DNA of 64,000 bases from Escherichia coli (GTDB taxonomy: Bacteria > Pseudomonadota > Gammaproteobacteria > Enterobacterales > Enterobacteriaceae), in NCBI RefSeq assembly GCF_003018235.1, contig NZ_CP027437.1; one strand, given 5' to 3'. Shown in pieces: positions 1 to 46,742 of the stretch. The number at the start of each line of letters is the position of its first letter. The first letter of the stretch is position 1. The notes beneath the pieces are model-generated. The model worked only from the letters and a program-made list of their open reading frames with translations, was not told where the DNA came from and did no database searches. The translations under genes and the position numbers were made by a program.

Positions 1-164
1 GTGCCGAAAAATATCTATTAACCGCCCCGTTTTGTTTTATACATGTCCGGACTACGGACAGATTTTAGTATTGTTGTGAAATTATTCTGCTTTATATTTA
101 CCCTCAGAGATGGCAACTGAAGCTCTTCCACATGGGGCTTCTTAATCTGTGATAAGGGTAAAAA

Positions 165-1718
165 ATGCAAATGATTACCTCGCGACAAAACAGATTATTA
201 CGATTCCTTTTACCACGAAGGGAATATACGACTATTGTTACGATTGCCGGCTATTTAAATGTTTCGGAAAAAACCATTCAACGTGATTTACGTTTACTTG
301 AGCAATGGCTGGAACAATGGCGAATAACCGTTGAGAAGCGTGCTGGCGCAGGTGTGATGTTAGACTCGAAGAATATTACTGATTTGCTGCATCTTGATCA
401 TTTGTTGGGAGCAGAATGTGAAGAGATTGATGGTGTAATGAATAATGCCAGGCGCGTTAAAATAGCGTCGCAGTTATTAAGTGAAACACCGAATGAAACG
501 TCGATCAGTAAATTGTCAGAGCGCTATTTTATCAGTGGAGCCTCTATTGTTAATGACCTGAGAGTGATTGAGTCCTGGCTTGCGCCGTTGGGGTTATCAT
601 TGATCCGCAGCCCAAGTGGTACGCATATTGAAGGTAGTGAAGGGCAAGTCCGACAGGCAATGGCATTACTGATTAACGGCATTATTAACCATAATGAGCC
701 GCAAGGTGTCGTGTATTCACGTCTGGATCCCGGAAGTTATAAAGCATTAGTCCATTATTTTGGAGAAGAAGAGGTGTTATTTGTCCAGTCATTGTTACTG
801 GATATGGAAAATGAATTAAGTTGGTCTTTGGGAGAGCCTTATTACGTTAACATTTTTACTCACATCCTTATTATGATGTATCGCAACACGCACGGGAATG
901 CGTTATCCAGAGAAGAAGATCAAACCAGGCAATATGATGAAAATATCTTTAATGTTGCCAGTCAGATGATTCATAAGATAGAACAACGAATTGCACATAC
1001 ATTGCCCGATGATGAAGTCTGGTTTATTTATCAATATATCATTTCATCAGGTGTGGCGATTGATGGACAAAAAGATGTTAGCATTATTTCACATATGCAG
1101 GCCAGCAATGAAGCGCGTCTGATTACCTGGCGTTTAATTACGGTATTCAGTGACATCGTGGACTGCGATTTTAGTGAAGACAGCGCATTATATGATGGCT
1201 TATTGGTGCATATTAAGCCGCTGATTAACCGACTAAATTATCGCATTCATATCCGTAATCCATTGCTGGAAGATATTAAAGCAGAATTAGCGGATGTCTG
1301 GCGGTTGACGCAATATGTGGTGAATCAGGTATTTAAAACCTGGGGTGAGAATGCAGTGAGCGAGGATGAAGTGGGTTACCTGACCGTTCATTTTCAGGCT
1401 GCGATGGAGCGGCAAATTGCCCGTAAACGCGTATTACTGGTCTGTTCAACCGGAATCGGAACTTCGCATCTACTGAAAAGCCGTATTCTGCGAGCGTTTC
1501 CTGAATGGACGATTGTTGATGTTATTTCAGCAGCGAATTTATCACAGGTTTTGCCTGACAATATCGAACTGATTATTTCGACCATTAATTTGCCTACAGT
1601 CACTATGCCGGTCGCTTATGTTACCGCTTTTTTTAATGATGCCGATATTAAGCGGGTCACTGAAATGGTGATTACGGAAAAATTACATCATGCGACATCT
1701 CGGGTCGTTGAAATTTAA
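165..1718 (+). CDS. PTS-operon transcriptional activator (Mga-type HTH, PRD domains, EIIB-like CSTGIGTS motif); regulator of frz-like operon
   Basis: 517-aa ORF; N-terminal HTH-like region (EKTIQRDLRLLEQWL), C-terminal LLVCSTGIGTSHLL typical of PTS-regulatory-domain activators; first gene of PTS operon. Confidence 0.8.
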   Translation: MQMITSRQNRLLRFLLPRREYTTIVTIAGYLNVSEKTIQRDLRLLEQWLEQWRITVEKRAGAGVMLDSKNITDLLHLDHLLGAECEEIDGVMNNARRVKIASQLLSETPNETSISKLSERYFISGASIVNDLRVIESWLAPLGLSLIRSPSGTHIEGSEGQVRQAMALLINGIINHNEPQGVVYSRLDPGSYKALVHYFGEEEVLFVQSLLLDMENELSWSLGEPYYVNIFTHILIMMYRNTHGNALSREEDQTRQYDENIFNVASQMIHKIEQRIAHTLPDDEVWFIYQYIISSGVAIDGQKDVSIISHMQASNEARLITWRLITVFSDIVDCDFSEDSALYDGLLVHIKPLINRLNYRIHIRNPLLEDIKAELADVWRLTQYVVNQVFKTWGENAVSEDEVGYLTVHFQAAMERQIARKRVLLVCSTGIGTSHLLKSRILRAFPEWTIVDVISAANLSQVLPDNIELIISTINLPTVTMPVAYVTAFFNDADIKRVTEMVITEKLHHATSRVVEI

Positions 1719-1744
1719 TGTCAGAATTTTATGAGGTATGACGA

Positions 1745-2215
1745 ATGGACATAACAAAAATCCTGAATACGAATCGCGTTATTTTAGATATGCAAGCGAC
1801 GAATAAAGCGGAGGCGATTGAAGAATTAACTAATCTTCTCAAAAAAGATGGTGCGATCGATTGTCGGGAAACCTTTATTAAAGATGTCTGGCAGCGCGAA
1901 GCGGAAGGCTCGACTGGTTTTGAAAATCATATTGCGATCCCGCATGGTAAATCTTCTGCGGTAATTAATACCACGCTGGCGATCGGGCGAACCCGGCAGG
2001 ATATTCCCTGGGAAACGCTGGATGGCAGTAGCGTGCGCTGTATTATTTTATTTGCGGTACGTCTTGAAGATCAAAATACCACCCATATCCGTTTACTTTC
2101 CCAGGTCGCGGGTGCGCTGGCGGATGATGACATCATAGAACAATTGCTGGTTGAGACGAGTCCGCAAAAAATCATTGATCTCTTTAGTCAGTATGCACAA
2201 TCCGATGTCTGCTAA
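1745..2215 (+). CDS. PTS EIIA component, fructose/mannitol (type-2) family
   Basis: 156 aa; conserved HIAIPHGK phosphorylation-site His motif; operon context. Confidence 0.8.
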   Translation: MDITKILNTNRVILDMQATNKAEAIEELTNLLKKDGAIDCRETFIKDVWQREAEGSTGFENHIAIPHGKSSAVINTTLAIGRTRQDIPWETLDGSSVRCIILFAVRLEDQNTTHIRLLSQVAGALADDDIIEQLLVETSPQKIIDLFSQYAQSDVC

Positions 2216-2232
2216 ATAACAGGGAGTATGTC

Positions 2233-2547
2233 ATGAATATTGTCTGTGTTGCCGCCTGCACGGCGGGTATTGCTCACACCTATATTGCTCGTGAAAAGTT
2301 AATTAAAGGGGCAAAAGCACTGGGCCACACCATTAAAGTTGAAACCCAGGGAACCATTGGTACAGAAAACGAATTACAGGCGGCAGAGATCTCTGCTGCT
2401 GACGTCGTGATTCTTGCTGTGGATGTGAAAATAAAAGGAGAAGAACGTTTTACCAATAAACGCATTGTGCGAGTAAAGACAGAGATCGTCATTAAATCGC
2501 CCGTTCAATTTCTTGAAAAGGTCGAAAAATCACTGGGAAATAAATGA
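2233..2547 (+). CDS. PTS EIIB component, fructose-type
   Basis: 104 aa; N-terminal CVAACTAGIAHTYIA Cys motif typical of fructose-family EIIB. Confidence 0.8.
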   Translation: MNIVCVAACTAGIAHTYIAREKLIKGAKALGHTIKVETQGTIGTENELQAAEISAADVVILAVDVKIKGEERFTNKRIVRVKTEIVIKSPVQFLEKVEKSLGNK

Positions 2548-2571
2548 TCCTTATACTGGAGGGATCTTAAT

Positions 2572-3663
2572 ATGAAAGAAAATAAAATTCCGGTTTCACA
2601 GGAAATTAAAAAACATTTATTAACCGGCATCTCGTGGATGATACCCCTTATTGTGGCCGCCGGGATATGTATTGCGTTGGGGCAAGTTCTTGGCGGTACA
2701 GATGTTGGTGAAAAAACAGGAACAATCCCGTGGATGCTTAATCAGATTGGCGGCTGGGGAATGGGGCTGATTGTGCCGCTGATTAGCGCGGCAATTGCCT
2801 ATTCTATTGCTGATCGTCCCGGTTTTGCCCCGGGCCTGATTGTCGGCTTTCTCTGTGGGCAAATCCATACCGGATTTATTGGCGGTATGTTGGGTGGTTT
2901 CCTGGTGGGCTACACCATTTTGCTACTTAAACGCTATATCCGCCTGCCGCAGTCGATGCAAGGACTCATGCCAATCATGGTGTTACCGGTATTGAGCACC
3001 ATTATCGGTGGGCTGTTAATGATGACGCTGATTGGTAAACCCATCGCCTGGTTACAAGAAGCACTGACTCATTTGCTCGAGTCGATGCAGGGCGGATCGC
3101 GCTTCCTGATGGGGGCCATACTTGGCGCGATGGCAACCTTCGATTTCGGTGGTCCGGTCAACAAAACCATGTCGCTGTTTTCCGATGGCTTGCTGGTCAG
3201 TGGCGTCTACGGACCAGAAGCCGTGAAATTTGTCGGCTCAATCATCCCTCCGTTTGGCATCACACTTTCGTTCTTACTGACACGCCATAAATACACCCGT
3301 GCGGAGCGCGAGGCGCTGAAAGCCGCGTTTCCGATGGGGATCTGCATGATCACTGAAGGAGTCATTCCGATCGCCGCGCGTGACCTGCTGCGAGTAGTGG
3401 GATCTTGTGTGGTGGCATCGGCGGTCGCGGGCGGCTTAATCATGGTGTGGGGCGTGGAGAGTCCGGTTCCGCATGGCGGCATGTTTGTTGTGCCTCTGTT
3501 CACCCATCCTCTGCTGTTTTGCCTGGCGCTGGGTATAGGCACGGTGATTTGTGGCGTGATGCTTTCACTCTGGAAGAAACCGGTAACGGAACGCGACGAA
3601 GAGTTTGACGAACTGAGCGATCAAAAGCTGAAAGATGAAGAGATCACTTTCACCCTCGAATAA
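2572..3663 (+). CDS. PTS EIIC permease, fructose-like family
   Basis: 363 aa, highly hydrophobic multi-TM protein; GGAGG SD upstream; follows EIIA/EIIB. Confidence 0.8.
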   Translation: MKENKIPVSQEIKKHLLTGISWMIPLIVAAGICIALGQVLGGTDVGEKTGTIPWMLNQIGGWGMGLIVPLISAAIAYSIADRPGFAPGLIVGFLCGQIHTGFIGGMLGGFLVGYTILLLKRYIRLPQSMQGLMPIMVLPVLSTIIGGLLMMTLIGKPIAWLQEALTHLLESMQGGSRFLMGAILGAMATFDFGGPVNKTMSLFSDGLLVSGVYGPEAVKFVGSIIPPFGITLSFLLTRHKYTRAEREALKAAFPMGICMITEGVIPIAARDLLRVVGSCVVASAVAGGLIMVWGVESPVPHGGMFVVPLFTHPLLFCLALGIGTVICGVMLSLWKKPVTERDEEFDELSDQKLKDEEITFTLE

Positions 3664-3674
3664 CCGGAGGCCCT

Positions 3675-4526
3675 ATGTTTGCCGATATGAAAAGTATGGT
3701 GATGAAAGCCTGGCATGAACATTACGCCTTGCTGGCGATCAACTGTATGAATCTGGAAAGTGCTCACGCAGCTATCCGCGTGGCGGAGAAGAATCGCGCT
3801 CCGATCATTCTCAATCTCTATCAGGGGCATCTGGCGCATTTTCCTGCACCCGTCGCGGCGGCAGTGGTTAAAACGCTCGCGGAATCTGCCTCAGTACCGG
3901 TCGCTCTGGCGCTTGATCATGGCAAAAATCCGGACTGTATTCGTCAGGCGTTTCGTGCTGGTTTCAGCGGATTAATGATTGATGCTTCTGCTTTTCCCCT
4001 GGAGGAAAACGTGCGCCAGACCAGGGCGGTGGTGGAACTCGCCGCCAGCGCGCAGCTCTGCGTGGAAGGCGAACTGGGCCATCTGGCAGATGCGCCGCGT
4101 TACGACCAGGCCGCCAATGCAGACCTGATGACGCAACCCACTGATGTGGAACCGTTTATCGCGCAGACAGGCATTGATCTACTGGCCGTCTCGGTAGGCA
4201 CGGCGCACGGCATGTACGCGCCTGGTGTTGTACCTGCTATTGATTTTCAGCGTCTGGCGGAGATTTTCCACTGCTCGAGCGTGCCTCTGGCATTACATGG
4301 CGGTAGCGGTACGCCGTTCGATCAGCTCCAGCTCTGTACGACGCTGGGGGTAGCAAAAATCAACGTGGGGGCGGCCATTTTTGAACGGGGGAAATCCGCG
4401 CTCCTGCATACCCTCTGTCACGATATATCCATTGAACTGGTGGACGCGCTGAAAGCTATGGAACTGGCCTTCGAAGAAGCGATTACACCGTATTTACAGG
4501 CGAGCGGCTCTATAGGCAAAGCCTGA
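3675..4526 (+). CDS. Class II ketose-1,6-bisphosphate aldolase (GatY/KbaY/FbaA family), copy 1
   Basis: 283 aa; LDHG, GTAHG and LHGGSG metal-binding motifs. Confidence 0.8.
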   Translation: MFADMKSMVMKAWHEHYALLAINCMNLESAHAAIRVAEKNRAPIILNLYQGHLAHFPAPVAAAVVKTLAESASVPVALALDHGKNPDCIRQAFRAGFSGLMIDASAFPLEENVRQTRAVVELAASAQLCVEGELGHLADAPRYDQAANADLMTQPTDVEPFIAQTGIDLLAVSVGTAHGMYAPGVVPAIDFQRLAEIFHCSSVPLALHGGSGTPFDQLQLCTTLGVAKINVGAAIFERGKSALLHTLCHDISIELVDALKAMELAFEEAITPYLQASGSIGKA

Positions 4527-4606
4527 TTCATTTTCTGTCATGGCCTTTATGCCAGTGCAATAACGCACCGGCAGGGCGGACTACACGCTGAAACTGGAGA
4601 TTTAAC

Positions 4607-5467
4607 ATGTTAGTTTCGATGAAAGAATTACTGCAACCTACCCGCCAGCACGGCTTTGCCATTGGCGCATTTAATGTGGCGGATAACTGTTTCCTTCGCG
4701 CAGTCGTGGATGAAGCAGAAGCGACAAATACTCCGGCGATTATTGCCATCCATCCCAGCGAACATGATTTTGTGGGCGATGCCTTTTTCGCTCACGTTCG
4801 CGAAATTACCCAGCGTAGTCCGGTCCCGTTTGTACTGCACCTCGATCATGGTGCCTCTGTAGAGCATGTTTTGCGTGCGATTCGCTGCGGATTTACCTCA
4901 GTAATGATCGACGGTTCGCTGCTGCCGTATGAAGAAAACGTGGCGCTGACCGCAGAAGTGGTTCGCCTCGCTCACGCGGTTGGAGTGTCGGTTGAGGGTG
5001 AACTGGGAACCATCGGACAAACAGGAACGTCGGTAGAAGGTGGTGTTTCACAAGTGACCTACACAGATCCGGCGCAGGCCGCCGATTTTATTGCTCGTAC
5101 AGGTGCCGACACTCTGGCTGTGGCGATTGGTACAGCGCATGGCATCTATCCAAAAGGGATGCAGCCGAAGCTGCAAATGGACATTTTGCGCGACATTGCC
5201 GGACGTATTGATATTCCGCTGGTGCTACACGGTGGTTCGGCAAACCCGGACGCGGAGATTGCTGAATCAGTTACGCTCGGCGTCGGCAAAATCAATATCT
5301 CCAGCGATATGAAATACGCCTATTTCCAGAAAGTGCGTGAAATTCTCGCTAAAGAGAGCTGGTGGGACCCGAACGTCATCTATCCGGATGCGATTAACGC
5401 GGCGCGGGAAGTCATTCGCCACAAAATGAAACTGTTCGGTTCGCTCGGTAAAGCATCACTGTACTAA
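4607..5467 (+). CDS. Class II ketose-1,6-bisphosphate aldolase, copy 2
   Basis: 286 aa; HLDHG, IGTAHG, LVLHGGS motifs; paralog of preceding gene. Confidence 0.8.
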   Translation: MLVSMKELLQPTRQHGFAIGAFNVADNCFLRAVVDEAEATNTPAIIAIHPSEHDFVGDAFFAHVREITQRSPVPFVLHLDHGASVEHVLRAIRCGFTSVMIDGSLLPYEENVALTAEVVRLAHAVGVSVEGELGTIGQTGTSVEGGVSQVTYTDPAQAADFIARTGADTLAVAIGTAHGIYPKGMQPKLQMDILRDIAGRIDIPLVLHGGSANPDAEIAESVTLGVGKINISSDMKYAYFQKVREILAKESWWDPNVIYPDAINAAREVIRHKMKLFGSLGKASLY

Positions 5468-5474
5468 GCCAGAA

Positions 5475-5495
5475 GGGCGGGGTGACCCGCCTTTT
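5475..5495 (+). terminator. GC-rich hairpin (GGCGGG-GTGA-CCCGCC) followed by TTTT between aldolase-2 and ROK kinase; possible intra-operon attenuator/partial terminator
   Basis: Inverted repeat read directly from sequence, T-run downstream. Confidence 0.35.
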
Positions 5496-5514
5496 ACGCA
5501 ACAAGGAACGAGAT

Positions 5515-6447
5515 ATGCACTATCTGGGGTTGGATATTGGTGGGACCAAAATCGCCGCCGTCGTCATGGATGCGCATGGCTGGGAGATTCGCCGTTACCG
5601 CTGCCCGACGCAAAAGTCGACATATCAACAATTTGTCTCATGCGTTGTGGCGTTTATCGAGCAGATTAGGCGGGACGTTCAACGACCGATGCTGACAGGG
5701 ATCGCCTTACCCGGCAGTATCTCGCCACTCACTGGCCTGATTAAAAACGCGAATATTCAGGTGATTAACGGTCATGCGTTACAGGCTGATTTGCAGCAAT
5801 TGCTTGGGCAACCGGTGGTGATAGCCAATGATGGTAACTGTTTCGCGCTATCAGAAGCTTGCGACGGTGCCGGGCAAGATTATGACGTGGTATTTGGTAT
5901 TACGCTTGGTACGGGCTGCGGCGGTGGCATTGCCATCAAGCAACGACCGTTTATAGGGGCCTGGGGAAATGCTGCCGAATGCGGTCATATCACGTTGCCA
6001 AGCTATACGGAGCAGGAAGATGGTCCATCAGTCAGTTGCTATTGCGGCAAACACAACTGCGTGGAGTCGTTTGTTTCCGGCAGCGGTTTTAGTGAACGCT
6101 ATCAACAGATGACTGCTAACTTGCTCACTCCTGCGGCGATTGTCACCCTGGCACAACGTGGTGATGCTTGTGCCATGCAGCAGGTGGCACGTTTTCGCCA
6201 ACAGCTTGCCCGCACGCTGGCAACCATCGTTAACGTTGTTGACCCTGGCGTGATTGTGATTGGCGGCGGGCTTTCGAATGTGGAACTGCTTATCACCGAT
6301 CTGAACGCAGAAGTCGCTCCACTGGTTTTCACCGACCAATTCACCACCCCCATTGTAAAAGCGCAGCACGGCGACAGTAGCGGAATGCGTGGCGCTGCCT
6401 GGCTTGCTATGCGCAACGGAGAAGCCAATGAAACGTTCACAAATTAA
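5515..6447 (+). CDS. ROK-family sugar kinase
   Basis: Start trimmed to MHYLGLDIGGTKIA (AAGGAA SD upstream); ROK glycine-rich ATP motif and Cys-rich zinc motif (CYCGKHNC). Confidence 0.8.
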   Translation: MHYLGLDIGGTKIAAVVMDAHGWEIRRYRCPTQKSTYQQFVSCVVAFIEQIRRDVQRPMLTGIALPGSISPLTGLIKNANIQVINGHALQADLQQLLGQPVVIANDGNCFALSEACDGAGQDYDVVFGITLGTGCGGGIAIKQRPFIGAWGNAAECGHITLPSYTEQEDGPSVSCYCGKHNCVESFVSGSGFSERYQQMTANLLTPAAIVTLAQRGDACAMQQVARFRQQLARTLATIVNVVDPGVIVIGGGLSNVELLITDLNAEVAPLVFTDQFTTPIVKAQHGDSSGMRGAAWLAMRNGEANETFTN

Positions 6448-7108
6448 TTATGTTATTGATAAAGCACATGCCATTGCGCAGACCTTCCGCGTTTGTTTGC
6501 CAGAGTTCGCCTATTTTACGGTGGATGACTGGCTGCAGCGGGAACGGGATAACTGGCAAGAAGTGGTCGACTTACAGCTCGGTTGGGATATCACCGATTT
6601 TGGTCGTGGTGATTTCAACCAAACGGGACTAACACTGCTAACGATGCGCAACGGCGCGCTGGGGGCGGCGGCATATCCAAAACCGTATGCTGAGAAAATG
6701 TTGCAGATCCAACAAGATCAGCAGACTCCCTGGCATTTTCACACCCACAAAATGGAAGATATCCTCAATCGGGGCGGTGGAGACTTATGCATGCAGTTGG
6801 CCTGGGCCAACGAAGCCAATCTCTGTGATGATCAACGAGTCATTACCGTGAGTGTTGATGGTCAGCGGCGTACCATGAAACCTGGTGAAACGCTGGTGCT
6901 AAAGCCGGGGCAGGGCATTTGCCTGCCGCCGCGTCTGTATCATCGCTTCTGGGCGGAAAAAGCGTTTGTTCTCGGCTGGGAAATTTCGATGGTAAATGAT
7001 GACCAACACGATAACTATTTTCTTGAGCCGGGAGGACGTTTTCCGGCGATAGAAGAAGATGAACCGGTGAAATGGTTATTGTGCAGTGAGTATGGAATTT
7101 TGCGCTAA
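6428..7108 (+). CDS. Cupin-superfamily protein (D-lyxose/sugar isomerase-like)
   Basis: Start chosen at MKRSQINYV (overlaps ROK stop by 20 nt); HFHTHK cupin metal motif; last gene of frz-like operon. Confidence 0.7.
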   Translation: MKRSQINYVIDKAHAIAQTFRVCLPEFAYFTVDDWLQRERDNWQEVVDLQLGWDITDFGRGDFNQTGLTLLTMRNGALGAAAYPKPYAEKMLQIQQDQQTPWHFHTHKMEDILNRGGGDLCMQLAWANEANLCDDQRVITVSVDGQRRTMKPGETLVLKPGQGICLPPRLYHRFWAEKAFVLGWEISMVNDDQHDNYFLEPGGRFPAIEEDEPVKWLLCSEYGILR

Positions 7109-7117
7109 TAACGGGGA

Positions 7118-7143
7118 ACGCTAGCGCTGATATCCGCTAGCGT
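7118..7143. terminator. Bidirectional hairpin terminator between convergent frz-like operon and yicH
   Basis: Perfect 9-bp inverted repeat ACGCTAGCG / CGCTAGCGT with 8-nt loop, followed by T-rich tract. Confidence 0.45.
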
Positions 7144-7151
7144 CCTTATTT

Positions 7152-8861
7152 TTACTGCACCGGCTCCGTCGACGTAACTTCACCACTGGAAACTACGCCC
7201 GCATTCATGGTTTGAGTCACTTGCTGCTTTGCGGCATTCACGGCATGCAATTGCCCGCTAACCGTAGGTTTCAGCGGGACATTGGCCTGAATATCGCCAC
7301 TGGCAGTAAGCTGAATATTGCCGTCGCCAGTCAACGGTAATTCAGGCCATCCCCACTGTTGCAAAATATTCACCGGCACACCGCGTCCATTCAGGCTGAT
7401 ATGGGTCTGACGTTGTGGCGTTTGTGAAACACTGGCGGTGGCTTCCAGAATGCCTTTTTCAGTAAATGCACTCAGTTCGCTGATATTCACCGTGCTGCTG
7501 TTGGCGGTCAGCGCCAGCGATGGGCGACGAACATCAACACGATTGAATGTCGCGGCGGCGGCATTCAGATTCGCCGAACCACTCCAGACGCCCCATTTAT
7601 GATCGGTAACCAGCGTCAGGTTGGTACCGTAACCATCGAGCGCGGTGAGCTGCCACGGGAAGTCAGGGTCGATATCAATGATCAGATTGCGGCTGGCGCT
7701 AAATCTCTTCAGTTGCAGGCTGTTTAACCAACCGGGTGTCGTTTCCATCCACAACTGTTGCCAGTTTTTTGGCAAGGTATATTCCAGTCCGGCAATTGCC
7801 GCATCATCAAGGAGCAACGTTTTCCCGTTGCGCAGCCAGTTCCCGGACGTTCTGACCATGCCCCCTTCCCAGCGGCTGGTGAACTGGCGCAGCGCTACGC
7901 CCTGCGGGGAAAATTCCGCGTTTATAATCGGGTCAAATAAATGCAGCGAACCATAAATGAACTCGCTGGCGTTCATCGACAGTTTGCCTTCCTGTGTCTG
8001 CCAGTCATCTTTACTGAAGGTCATGTTGCGCAAGCTGAGATCGAGGTCGGTCACCGCCCAGTCCGGACCTTGCAGGCGAGCGTCGATGACTTCCAGGCGA
8101 CCGATCTGCAACGACGGGACAGAGCGTAATGGCGCAAAGAAGTCAGTTAGCGATTTTTCGCTTTGTAGACGGATATCCGCCAGCCGCAGATTTTCCACTT
8201 GCCAGCTGCCGTCGGCGTTACGCTGCGCGTTTCCGGTTAATGTCCCGCGGGCGATGTCGGCACCCAGGTTAGTCAGCGTAACGCGATCGTTATCAATACT
8301 GCCTTCAATCAGTACATTGGTGGCAGGAACATCATTGAGAGAAAGCGATCCGGCACTAAACTGAATCTGCGCCTTCGTACCCAGCACTTTACCGGCTTCT
8401 GGTGACCACGGAACCACGCCACCATTTACCCGCTGCGCGCTCAGTTTCCATTCGCTATTCGGGCTATTAAACGCCATATCACGCAGTTGCAGACGATCGG
8501 CTTTGAACGGTAGCGGCGCGGTCTGGTCGGTGAGATTCAGCGTCCCGTTTTCCAGCAGGATGGTATCGACATGGCGTGGTTCGGTCAGTTGCCGACTGCT
8601 TAGCGCAATGTCGACACTTTTTGCCACCAGGGTCGCGGGCTGGCCATCACGGCCGAACGTGACGTTCTCCAGCACGATATGAGATGGCGCGGAAAAACGG
8701 TGATCCATCGCCCCGAAGGCCAGATGATAGTCGCTATTCTCGGAAACCCATGCGCTGATATGTTCTGCTCCCCAGCGGGTTTGCAGAAGAAAATAGAGGC
8801 CAGCGATCACCACTAACAGAGCGATGAAAATGTAGAGAAGCAGCTTCCCAATAAATTTCAT
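7152..8861 (-). CDS. yicH: AsmA-family outer-membrane biogenesis protein YicH
   Basis: 569 aa after trimming to MKFIGKLLLYI; N-terminal TM segment; synteny next to xanP. Confidence 0.85.
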   Translation of the reverse strand: MKFIGKLLLYIFIALLVVIAGLYFLLQTRWGAEHISAWVSENSDYHLAFGAMDHRFSAPSHIVLENVTFGRDGQPATLVAKSVDIALSSRQLTEPRHVDTILLENGTLNLTDQTAPLPFKADRLQLRDMAFNSPNSEWKLSAQRVNGGVVPWSPEAGKVLGTKAQIQFSAGSLSLNDVPATNVLIEGSIDNDRVTLTNLGADIARGTLTGNAQRNADGSWQVENLRLADIRLQSEKSLTDFFAPLRSVPSLQIGRLEVIDARLQGPDWAVTDLDLSLRNMTFSKDDWQTQEGKLSMNASEFIYGSLHLFDPIINAEFSPQGVALRQFTSRWEGGMVRTSGNWLRNGKTLLLDDAAIAGLEYTLPKNWQQLWMETTPGWLNSLQLKRFSASRNLIIDIDPDFPWQLTALDGYGTNLTLVTDHKWGVWSGSANLNAAAATFNRVDVRRPSLALTANSSTVNISELSAFTEKGILEATASVSQTPQRQTHISLNGRGVPVNILQQWGWPELPLTGDGNIQLTASGDIQANVPLKPTVSGQLHAVNAAKQQVTQTMNAGVVSSGEVTSTEPVQ

Positions 8862-8949
8862 GGTCTTCCATCCCGTGAAATGCACATAAGGGAGTTATGC
8901 ACGATTTACGCGCAATCCTCAAGGCGGGAATGGTGAAAGAGGTGAGACT

Positions 8950-8974
8950 GCGGCGGTAATTATCTTACCGCCGC
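8950..8974. repeat. Perfect 10-bp inverted repeat (GCGGCGGTAA / TTACCGCCGC) downstream of xanP; REP-like or terminator stem
   Basis: Read from sequence; no clean U-tract on xanP strand. Confidence 0.35.
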
Positions 8975-8981
8975 CAGTGAA

Positions 8982-10373
8982 TTACTGTTTTTCTGGTGGG
9001 AAAATCAGATTCAGCACGATGGCAGTAATACCGCCTGCGGCGATCCCGGAGGAGAGCAGGTTTTTCAGCCACTCAGGGGCAAACTGCAAAATCAGCGGCT
9101 GCTGAGACACGCCCAAACCGACCGCCAGCGACAGCGCGATAATCAGAATCGCCCGACGGTTCAGCGGCTCACGAGAAACAATGCGCACACCGGAGGCGGC
9201 GATGGTGCCAAACATTACAAGCGTTGCGCCGCCCAGAACCGGTTCAGGAATGTGTTGTACAAAACCGCTCACTGCCGGGAACAGACCCAGCACGATCAAC
9301 ATCAGCGCGACGACAAAACCGACATAGCGGCTGGCAACACCGGTTAACTGGATCACTCCGTTGTTCTGCCCGAAGCAGGAGTTCGGGAAGGTGTTAAATA
9401 CCGCCGAAACAAACGAGTTCAGGCCGTTTGCCAGCACGCCGCCTTTCAGGCGTTTCATGTACAGCGGACCGGACACTGGCTGTTCGGAAACGTCAGAGGT
9501 CGCCGTGATATCGCCAATGGTTTCCAGCGAAGTGATCATAAAGACCAGCATCAGCGGCAGCAGCAGACTCCATTCAATGCCAAGGCCGTAATAGAGCGGC
9601 GTTGGTACCATAATCAGTTCTTGCGTCATCGGTTCGTTGCTTTCTGGCAACATGCCCATAAACCACGCCAGCGCATATCCGGCCGCCATCGCAATCACCA
9701 GTGAGGCCACGCGTAAGTAAGGGTTACGTTGACGGTTAAGCAGGATAATTAAGGCTAAAACCACGCCTGCCAGCAGCAGATTTTTCGGTGCGCCGAAGGT
9801 GTTATCGCTCATGGCTGCGTAACCGCCGCCAATGGAGGTCAGCCCCACCTGAATTAGCGACAGGCCGATAATCATCACCACAACGCCAGAAACCAGCGGC
9901 GTAATAATGCGGCGCGCCAGATGCAGAACGCGGGAGATCACCATCTCGGTGCAACTTGCCAGCATCAACGTGCCAAACAAAGCCGCCATCATGGTAGGAA
10001 CATCAGCACCACCGGTTTTCAGCGCGGTACCGCCCATAATCAGCGGGGCAACAAAGTTGAAGCTGGTGCCCTGAATAGACAACAGCCCGGAGCCAACCGG
10101 ACCCCAGGCCTTAATTTGAATAATCGATGCCACACCGGAGGCAAACAGCGACATACTAATAATGTGTTGCGTGTCTTGTGCCGGTAAACCCAGCGCCTGG
10201 CAGATTAATAGCGCTGGCGTGATCACCGCAACGAACATCGCCAGCAAATGCTGACAGGCGGCAAACAGAGTTTGAGGAAGCGGCGGACGATCTTCAAGAC
10301 GGTAAATCAGTTCGCTGTTTTGAGTCTGCGCAACCGGTTGCGCATTTTCTGACTCGAGGGTGGAAACAGACAT
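8982..10373 (-). CDS. xanP: Xanthine permease (NCS2 family)
   Basis: 463 aa from [16 protein letters not shown]; matches remembered XanP/YicE sequence. Confidence 0.9.
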
Positions 10374-46718: not shown

Positions 46719-46742
46719 GGGCTGGTATTCCAGCCCTTTTTC
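46719..46742 (+). terminator. Rho-independent terminator after tdh
   Basis: GGGCTGG-TATT-CCAGCCC followed by TTTTT. Confidence 0.6.

Follow-up and report, generated by a model that had tools for sequence, protein, structure and literature searches.

The RNA hairpin between the aldolase-2 and ROK kinase genes of the Escherichia coli frz operon (positions 5472–5495 of the window, the whole 64-kb stretch of DNA analysed here) is, judging by the comparison of orthologous junctions, kept by purifying selection on the base pairing of the sense-strand RNA. The four T residues that follow its GC-rich core are not conserved with it. We propose with moderate confidence, as an inferred mechanism, that the element defines the 3′ end of the core frz transcript and stabilises that RNA, with leaky termination as a possible additional effect in E. 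coli. It belongs to a known, ordinary type, the hairpins that end or stabilise transcripts, of which it is a new instance.

RESULTS

The frz operon and its genes

The ExPEC frz operon, flanked by yicI and yicH, makes up the first 7.1 kb of the window, and this stretch was matched with at least 95% identity in 1605 of 5426 complete E. coli genomes, among them UTI89, NC101, Nissle 1917 and 83972. The operon encodes a PRD/Mga-type regulator of 517 amino acids (165–1718; Pfam domains HTH_11, Mga, two PRD and PTS_IIB) followed by PTS IIA (1745–2215), IIB (2233–2547) and IIC (2572–3663) and the class II aldolase-1 (3675–4526), the last four assigned from the open reading frame list, the UTI89 RefSeq annotation and Pfam. 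The next gene, aldolase-2 (4607–5467, plus strand; stop codon TAA at 5465–5467), encodes a class II ketose-bisphosphate aldolase (PF01116, E = 8e-91; UTI89 RefSeq) and closes the conserved frz core of six genes, namely the regulator, IIA, IIB, IIC, aldolase-1 and aldolase-2. It is followed on the same strand by a variable module (5515–7108) that is present, partial or absent according to genus and comprises the genes for a ROK kinase (5515–6447; PF00480) and a cupin D-lyxose isomerase (6428–7108; PF07385). The ATG of the kinase gene (5515–5517) is the start annotated in UTI89 RefSeq, and its Shine–Dalgarno sequence AAGGA was read at 5503–5507 on the plus strand. The frz context given in the original prediction was borne out by the UTI89 RefSeq match and by the Pfam domains of all gene classes.

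The ROK and cupin reading frames share 20 nt (6428–6447, from the cupin ATG at 6428 to the ROK stop codon TAA at 6445–6447), and the cupin Shine–Dalgarno sequence GGAGAAG lies at 6418–6424, inside the ROK end. Because the cupin start precedes the ROK stop by 20 nt, this arrangement points to translational coupling between the kinase and isomerase genes. Protein identity between the window (165–7108) and the operons of other genera (loci L002–L065) was uneven: 83%–97% for IIC, 78%–93% for aldolase-2, 71%–81% for the cupin, 58%–84% for aldolase-1 and 56%–78% for the ROK kinase. The gap between aldolase-1 and aldolase-2 (4527–4606) is unusually long, at 80 nt, and is likewise preserved in other genera. 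Within it, at about 4543–4577, lies a second, two-tier and imperfect hairpin (GCCU/GGGC around UGCC-A-GUGC...GCAC-C-GGCA), in which 77.6% of alignment cells were paired versus 37%–55% with slid partners, with covariation not above that of shuffled alignments. The hairpins at 4543–4577 and 5472–5495 bracket the aldolase-2 cistron.

The operon ends in a hairpin followed by UUAUUUUU (7113–7146, plus strand), which was called by the terminator scan, lies between the cupin gene and the convergent yicH, and served as a comparator for the internal hairpin. Our scan of the plus strand near 5400–5515 revealed no sigma-70-like site that could serve as an internal promoter for the ROK gene, and the frz genes are described as one transcription unit in a passage of a review citing Rouquet 2009 (PMC8777976). 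Expression of the ROK kinase thus needs read-through past the hairpin, with which the one-operon description in that passage fits.

Folding and copy number of the hairpin

The stem GGCGGG/CCCGCC followed by TTTT, as originally described between aldolase-2 and the ROK kinase gene, was found on reading the sequence to be correct in position and description. In the 47-nt gap, the aldolase-2 stop codon is followed by gcca, the 5′ strand of the lower stem (GAAG, 5472–5475), the 5′ arm of the core stem (GGCGGG, 5476–5481), a tetraloop of the GNRA class (GTGA, read as GUGA in the RNA; 5482–5485), the 3′ arm of the core (CCCGCC, 5486–5491) and TTTT (5492–5495), all on the plus strand, and then by acgcaac, AAGGA and acgagat before the ATG. 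The two core arms were assigned from the sequence and the orthologue alignment, and the tetraloop from the sequence and the fold. The sequence and the fold also indicate that TTTT serves twice, as the 3′ strand of the lower stem and as the sole U-tract, with ACGC next; its four residues are predicted to pair with GAAG as G·U, A–U, A–U and G·U at probabilities of 0.92–0.99. The stem therefore begins 4–8 nt past the aldolase-2 stop codon, its core starting 8 nt after it, and the hairpin ends 7 nt ahead of the ROK Shine–Dalgarno sequence.

The core 16-mer folded at −12.6 kcal/mol (z = −3.8), and the 24-mer that includes the four lower pairs, giving a 10-bp stem, folded at −17.0 kcal/mol (z = −4.6), with none of 200 shuffled sequences as stable; the operon-end hairpin gave −19.3 kcal/mol (z = −3.5). 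A weak predicted folding energy, which would have spoken against the original prediction, was thus not obtained. All ten pairs had probabilities of 0.92–1.00 in contexts of 220 and 420 nt, with the core above 0.99, and the hairpin is accordingly predicted by these folding models to form robustly in the sense-strand RNA. It folded independently of positions 5503–5517, leaving the ROK Shine–Dalgarno sequence and ATG unpaired. Folding in the same two contexts revealed no competing CCCGCC-like arm upstream, indicating that the hairpin is not a switchable attenuator. A BglG/SacY-type RAT/terminator switch was likewise rejected, as the regulator has no CAT domain and no alternative upstream pairing partner exists.

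A single exact instance of GGCGGG-N4-CCCGCC was found in the 64 kb of the window, where other near matches were at chance level, and a covariance model of the hairpin detected no second convincing copy there. The junction is present at one place per genome in the 1605 E. coli genomes. A REP/BIME or other repeated element was rejected, the hairpin being single-copy both in the window and in each of these genomes. No Rfam covariance model matched positions 1–9000 at E ≤ 1. The variants found within E. coli touch the loop alone (GCAA in strain ET201 and AUGA in strain NR3736), leaving the stems unaltered.

Conservation and covariation at orthologous junctions

Orthologous operons were gathered via the ROK kinase and via aldolase-2. 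A homologous hairpin was found at the aldolase-2 junctions of 12 other named genera and of metagenome-assembled genomes. Every junction of 47–78 nt, a set comprising Escherichia, Kosakonia, Phytobacter, Citrobacter, Buttiauxella, three Klebsiella species (K. michiganensis, K. grimontii and K. aerogenes), Izhakiella, Brenneria, Gibbsiella and two metagenome-assembled genomes, holds a stable hairpin 6–14 nt past the aldolase-2 stop codon, most with the GGCGGG...CCCGCC core, and the remainder of the gap is barely alignable across genera.

Pairing statistics were obtained from an alignment, A3, of 11 distinct orthologous sequences with 4-nt loops; it was restricted in this way because variants with loops of 5–9 nt were placed out of register when MAFFT aligned the full junctions. 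In A3, 86.8% of cells were paired, versus 79.6% after shuffling (none of 500 shuffles reached the observed value) and 45%–58% with slid partners, though these shuffle statistics overstate significance because the 11 sequences form a small sample and are related by descent. The 5′ arm GGCGGG was invariant in all 11 sequences, and the 3′ arm changed in orthologues solely by two C-to-T substitutions, both giving G·U pairs, namely CUCGCC (Buttiauxella) and CCUGCC (K. michiganensis and K. grimontii). Double changes were observed at 5 of the 11 pairs, with covariation in the lower-stem columns 4–25, 5–24 and 6–23; column 5–24 was GC in six sequences and AU in three, and AU, GU, CG, GC and UA were all seen in column 4–25.

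Over all pairs, there were 12 G·U and 1 A·C, and for both E. coli and K. michiganensis the predicted fold of the sense strand was more stable, by 5–11 kcal/mol, than that of the antisense strand. The object of selection is thus indicated to be the hairpin of the mRNA strand and not a DNA palindrome. Loops ranged from 4 to 9 nt across orthologues and were of the GNRA (GUGA, GAAA and GUAA), UNCG (UUCG and UACG) or CUUG/UUUG types, with GNRA or UNCG in most taxa. The z-scores were −3.8 to −5.2 across E. coli, K. aerogenes, K. michiganensis and Acerihabitans.

Terminator quality and the T-run

The terminator scan, run over the whole window, requires at least five T residues in the eight bases after the stem and did not call the hairpin at 5476–5495, because only four of those eight bases are T. 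A d'Aubenton-Carafa-type discriminant was also calculated with modern energy parameters, and ranks alone are meaningful in it. With a d of +15, the hairpin ranked sixth among all the hairpins followed by T residues that were scored on either strand of the window, above the operon-end terminator with its UUAUUUUU tail (d about 0). Its T-tract score was 3.1, versus 4.8–5.5 for the best terminators of the window, and canonical terminator U-tracts are 8–10 nt long (PMC12207403). The element shares the GC-rich stem–loop of canonical intrinsic terminators, having six G–C pairs, four lower pairs and the GUGA loop, whereas the UUUU followed by ACGC falls short of five T in eight while scoring positively on the discriminant. 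As a sequence object, the hairpin is thus a credible yet U-poor terminator; it does not appear to be a canonical one and would at most terminate weakly. No rut-like region was found downstream, the following 120 nt holding 30 C versus 37 G. Elsewhere in the window, a symmetric hairpin, GGGCTGGTATTCCAGCCC (46719–46736), has T-rich tails on both strands, ranked fourth and seventh in the window-wide scan, and looks like a bidirectional terminator.

Conservation of the U-tract alongside the hairpin, as expected of a canonical terminator, was not found in the orthologues, and the T-run is missing from more than half of the orthologous junctions. In K. aerogenes, the four homologous bases are UUCC, which form Watson–Crick pairs with GGAA in a 10-bp stem followed by AAUCGG; other orthologues have UC or CC at these positions, and in Kosakonia and Phytobacter the UC belongs to the stem, with UUUCGC next. 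The U-tract is absent from Klebsiella (three species), Buttiauxella (two species), Brenneria (two), Gibbsiella, Izhakiella, bin27 and Acerihabitans, which scored d values of −10 to −53 and T-tract scores below 1.9. The only positive values of d were those of Escherichia (+15), of Kosakonia and Phytobacter (+4 to +6) and of Citrobacter (+2), and d was negative in 10 other taxa. Because 10 orthologous taxa keep the hairpin without the U-tract, termination cannot be what conserves it.

In Mangrovibacter, the hairpin is replaced by two unrelated ones, the second followed by UUUUG just before the ROK Shine–Dalgarno sequence. The aldolase-2/ROK gap of M. yixingensis (L024, 3268–3500) is 233 nt long and contains an inserted perfect hairpin, AAAAAGAAGGAAAAA...TTTTTCCTTCTTTTT, which looks like a bidirectional terminator; that of M. 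plantisponsor (L023) is 103 nt long and has no such insertion.

Linkage of the hairpin to aldolase-2

The genes behind aldolase-2 differ among genera. Both the ROK kinase and the cupin follow it in Escherichia, Kosakonia, Citrobacter, Phytobacter, Klebsiella and B. massiliensis, the ROK kinase only in Brenneria, Gibbsiella and Mangrovibacter, and the cupin only in B. warmboldiae and, with a truncated ROK gene, in Izhakiella; nothing follows it in Sodalis, Pectobacterium, Erwinia persicina, Prodigiosinella and Acerihabitans. In Buttiauxella warmboldiae (L060), where the ROK gene is absent, a related hairpin is retained ahead of the cupin gene. In Acerihabitans, the hairpin GGGCGGGC...GCCCGCCC (−20.6 kcal/mol) has no U-tract, starts within the same 6–14 nt range past the aldolase-2 stop codon, is the last element of the operon and faces a convergent gene. 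No such hairpin was found upstream of the stand-alone ROK homologues in other contexts, which have promoter or operator regions there instead. The hairpin thus travels, on this comparison of gene orders, with the 3′ end of aldolase-2 whatever follows. In Pectobacterium and Prodigiosinella, whose operons are of the short form, the terminal hairpins are unrelated, so that this hairpin is only putatively ancestral.

The cupin isomerase gene is kept both in Izhakiella (L054), where the ROK gene is truncated, and in B. warmboldiae, where it is absent, suggesting that the accessory module decays gene by gene behind the hairpin. The stand-alone ROK homologues of other genera at loci L025, L026, L029, L030, L031, L045 and L047 carry a TTTGTTTAGTAAACAAAA-like palindrome about 40–80 nt upstream of position 3501, which is probably a repressor operator; this palindrome is absent from the frz context.

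DISCUSSION

The original prediction offered two roles for the hairpin, partial termination of transcription or stabilisation of the upstream mRNA. On the comparison of orthologues, stabilisation is the better candidate for the function that has been conserved, because the stem appears to be under RNA-level selection while the T-run is short, non-conserved and homologous to a strand of the stem. Partial termination fits these data less well and may contribute in E. coli, where it is plausible in view of the positive discriminant score. It could even be the main rather than a side effect there, since the d of the hairpin exceeds that of the operon's own end terminator.

We propose the following scenario for the frz transcript. 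The hairpin may mark the 3′ boundary of a putatively ancestral six-gene core. RNAs cut or ended downstream would be trimmed by the 3′-to-5′ exonucleases PNPase and RNase II, which would halt at the stem, and the mRNA segment from the regulator to aldolase-2 would consequently outlive the ROK/cupin part. In Escherichia, and more weakly in Kosakonia, Phytobacter and Citrobacter, where UUUU or UCUUU comes after the stem, a minority of transcripts probably also ends there by leaky intrinsic termination. A ribosome terminating 4–8 nt before a stem would, by its footprint, impede the folding of that stem. Given the distance between the stem and the stop codon, the terminating ribosome may thus hinder folding of the frz hairpin, and read-through would be favoured when aldolase-2 is well translated. 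Under either mechanism, the ROK kinase and the cupin would be made by read-through and below the level of the transporter and the aldolases, which is the expression pattern originally predicted.

Stable stem–loops without U-tracts shield E. coli 3′ ends against PNPase and RNase II (PMC6061677), and conserved protective structures alter operon stoichiometry (PMC5927463). The frz hairpin resembles these protective 3′ stem–loops (Dar & Sorek, 2018; PMC5927463, PMC6061677) in being a stable GC-rich stem–loop placed just after a cistron, in being stable without a U-tract and in having a structure conserved between enterobacterial genera on the mRNA strand; the expected shared outcome would be more steady-state mRNA for the upstream segment. 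The protective stem–loops of those reports are mostly located within the following gene's coding region, whereas the frz hairpin lies in a 47-nt intergenic gap. Furthermore, one classical protective case, malE–malF, has a REP element; the frz hairpin is single-copy and has no REP consensus match, though it shares with REP/BIME elements the character of a GC-rich extragenic palindrome between operon genes. It is also like intrinsic terminators, including partial ones within operons such as T1 of rpsU–dnaG–rpoD, in having a GC-rich tetraloop hairpin right after a stop codon with U residues behind it, and it has a positive classical discriminant in E. coli, but its U-tract differs in being 4 nt long, homologous to paired stem positions and absent from most orthologues. 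The papBA 5′ stem–loop is similarly an intercistronic hairpin near the start of the next cistron; the frz hairpin differs from it in segregating with the upstream and not the downstream gene.

A mainly leaky Rho-independent terminator, which would release the polymerase at U4 for a fixed fraction of transcripts and so lower ROK and cupin transcription, was the main reading of the original prediction and is an unlikely explanation, albeit one that several features of the sequence invite: UUUU directly follows a GC-rich stem of 6 bp capped by a GNRA loop, the discriminant places this hairpin above the operon-end terminator, Kosakonia, Phytobacter and Citrobacter also have T-rich tails, and Mangrovibacter has an unrelated hairpin with UUUUG directly ahead of the ROK Shine–Dalgarno sequence. 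It has to be set against these that the U-tract has just four residues in 8 nt and is rejected by the terminator scan, that its residues are the homologues of lower-stem positions that are paired in relatives, that 10 orthologous taxa hold the hairpin without it, that a ribosome terminating so near the stem would disturb folding and that the operon is reported, in the review passage cited above, to be a single transcription unit. The variability of the downstream module, several genera having aldolase-2 as their final frz gene, and the degenerate U-tract would suit a functionless relic, an old terminator of a six-gene operon whose U-tract has been decaying since ROK and the cupin were added. 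We consider this quite improbable, as the 12-nt core is near-invariant across genera in which the intergenic flanks cannot be aligned, and the compensatory changes in the lower stem, the 12-to-1 excess of G·U over A·C and the maintenance of stable tetraloops argue against decay.

The remaining explanations place the function on the downstream gene or in the DNA. The hairpin always lies 5–9 nt ahead of the next gene's Shine–Dalgarno sequence in long-form operons, and a papBA-type mechanism is documented (PMC5927463), so that 5′ protection after an RNase E cut upstream, or a spacing or standby hairpin for the ROK ribosome-binding site, might be envisaged. Such a role is disfavoured by the segregation of the hairpin with aldolase-2, which keeps it when ROK is missing (B. 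warmboldiae) or nothing follows (Acerihabitans); moreover, stand-alone ROK homologues have no such hairpin and the ROK Shine–Dalgarno sequence and ATG are not sequestered, and we regard it as very improbable. A palindromic operator or cruciform in the DNA, bound by a dimeric protein such as the frz regulator, seems extremely unlikely despite the perfect inverted repeat GGCGGG-N4-CCCGCC: substitutions preserve wobble pairing on the sense strand only, the lower-stem sequence is free to change while pairing stays, the loop length varies and the site is internal to the operon, at a great distance from the promoter.

In the literature searched, we found no Term-seq, RNA-seq or transcription-unit data for frz-carrying ExPEC strains. 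Beyond the proposed stabiliser function, we tentatively suggest, as a rather doubtful extension, that the hairpin is a portable module-boundary element, kept as the 3′ end of the frz core while accessory genes came and went. If so, it would provide a fixed expression hierarchy in one operon without an internal promoter, and together with the hairpin at 4543–4577 it might create a separately stabilised aldolase-2 mRNA segment. The present comparison adds a comparatively supported intergenic protective or leaky-terminator hairpin and alters no general concept. For frz, an ExPEC-associated fitness operon, a boundary hairpin predicts that the transporter and aldolases would be in excess over the kinase and isomerase and that the six-gene core would be the functional unit, which may be of use in the design of expression constructs and the reading of polar mutants.
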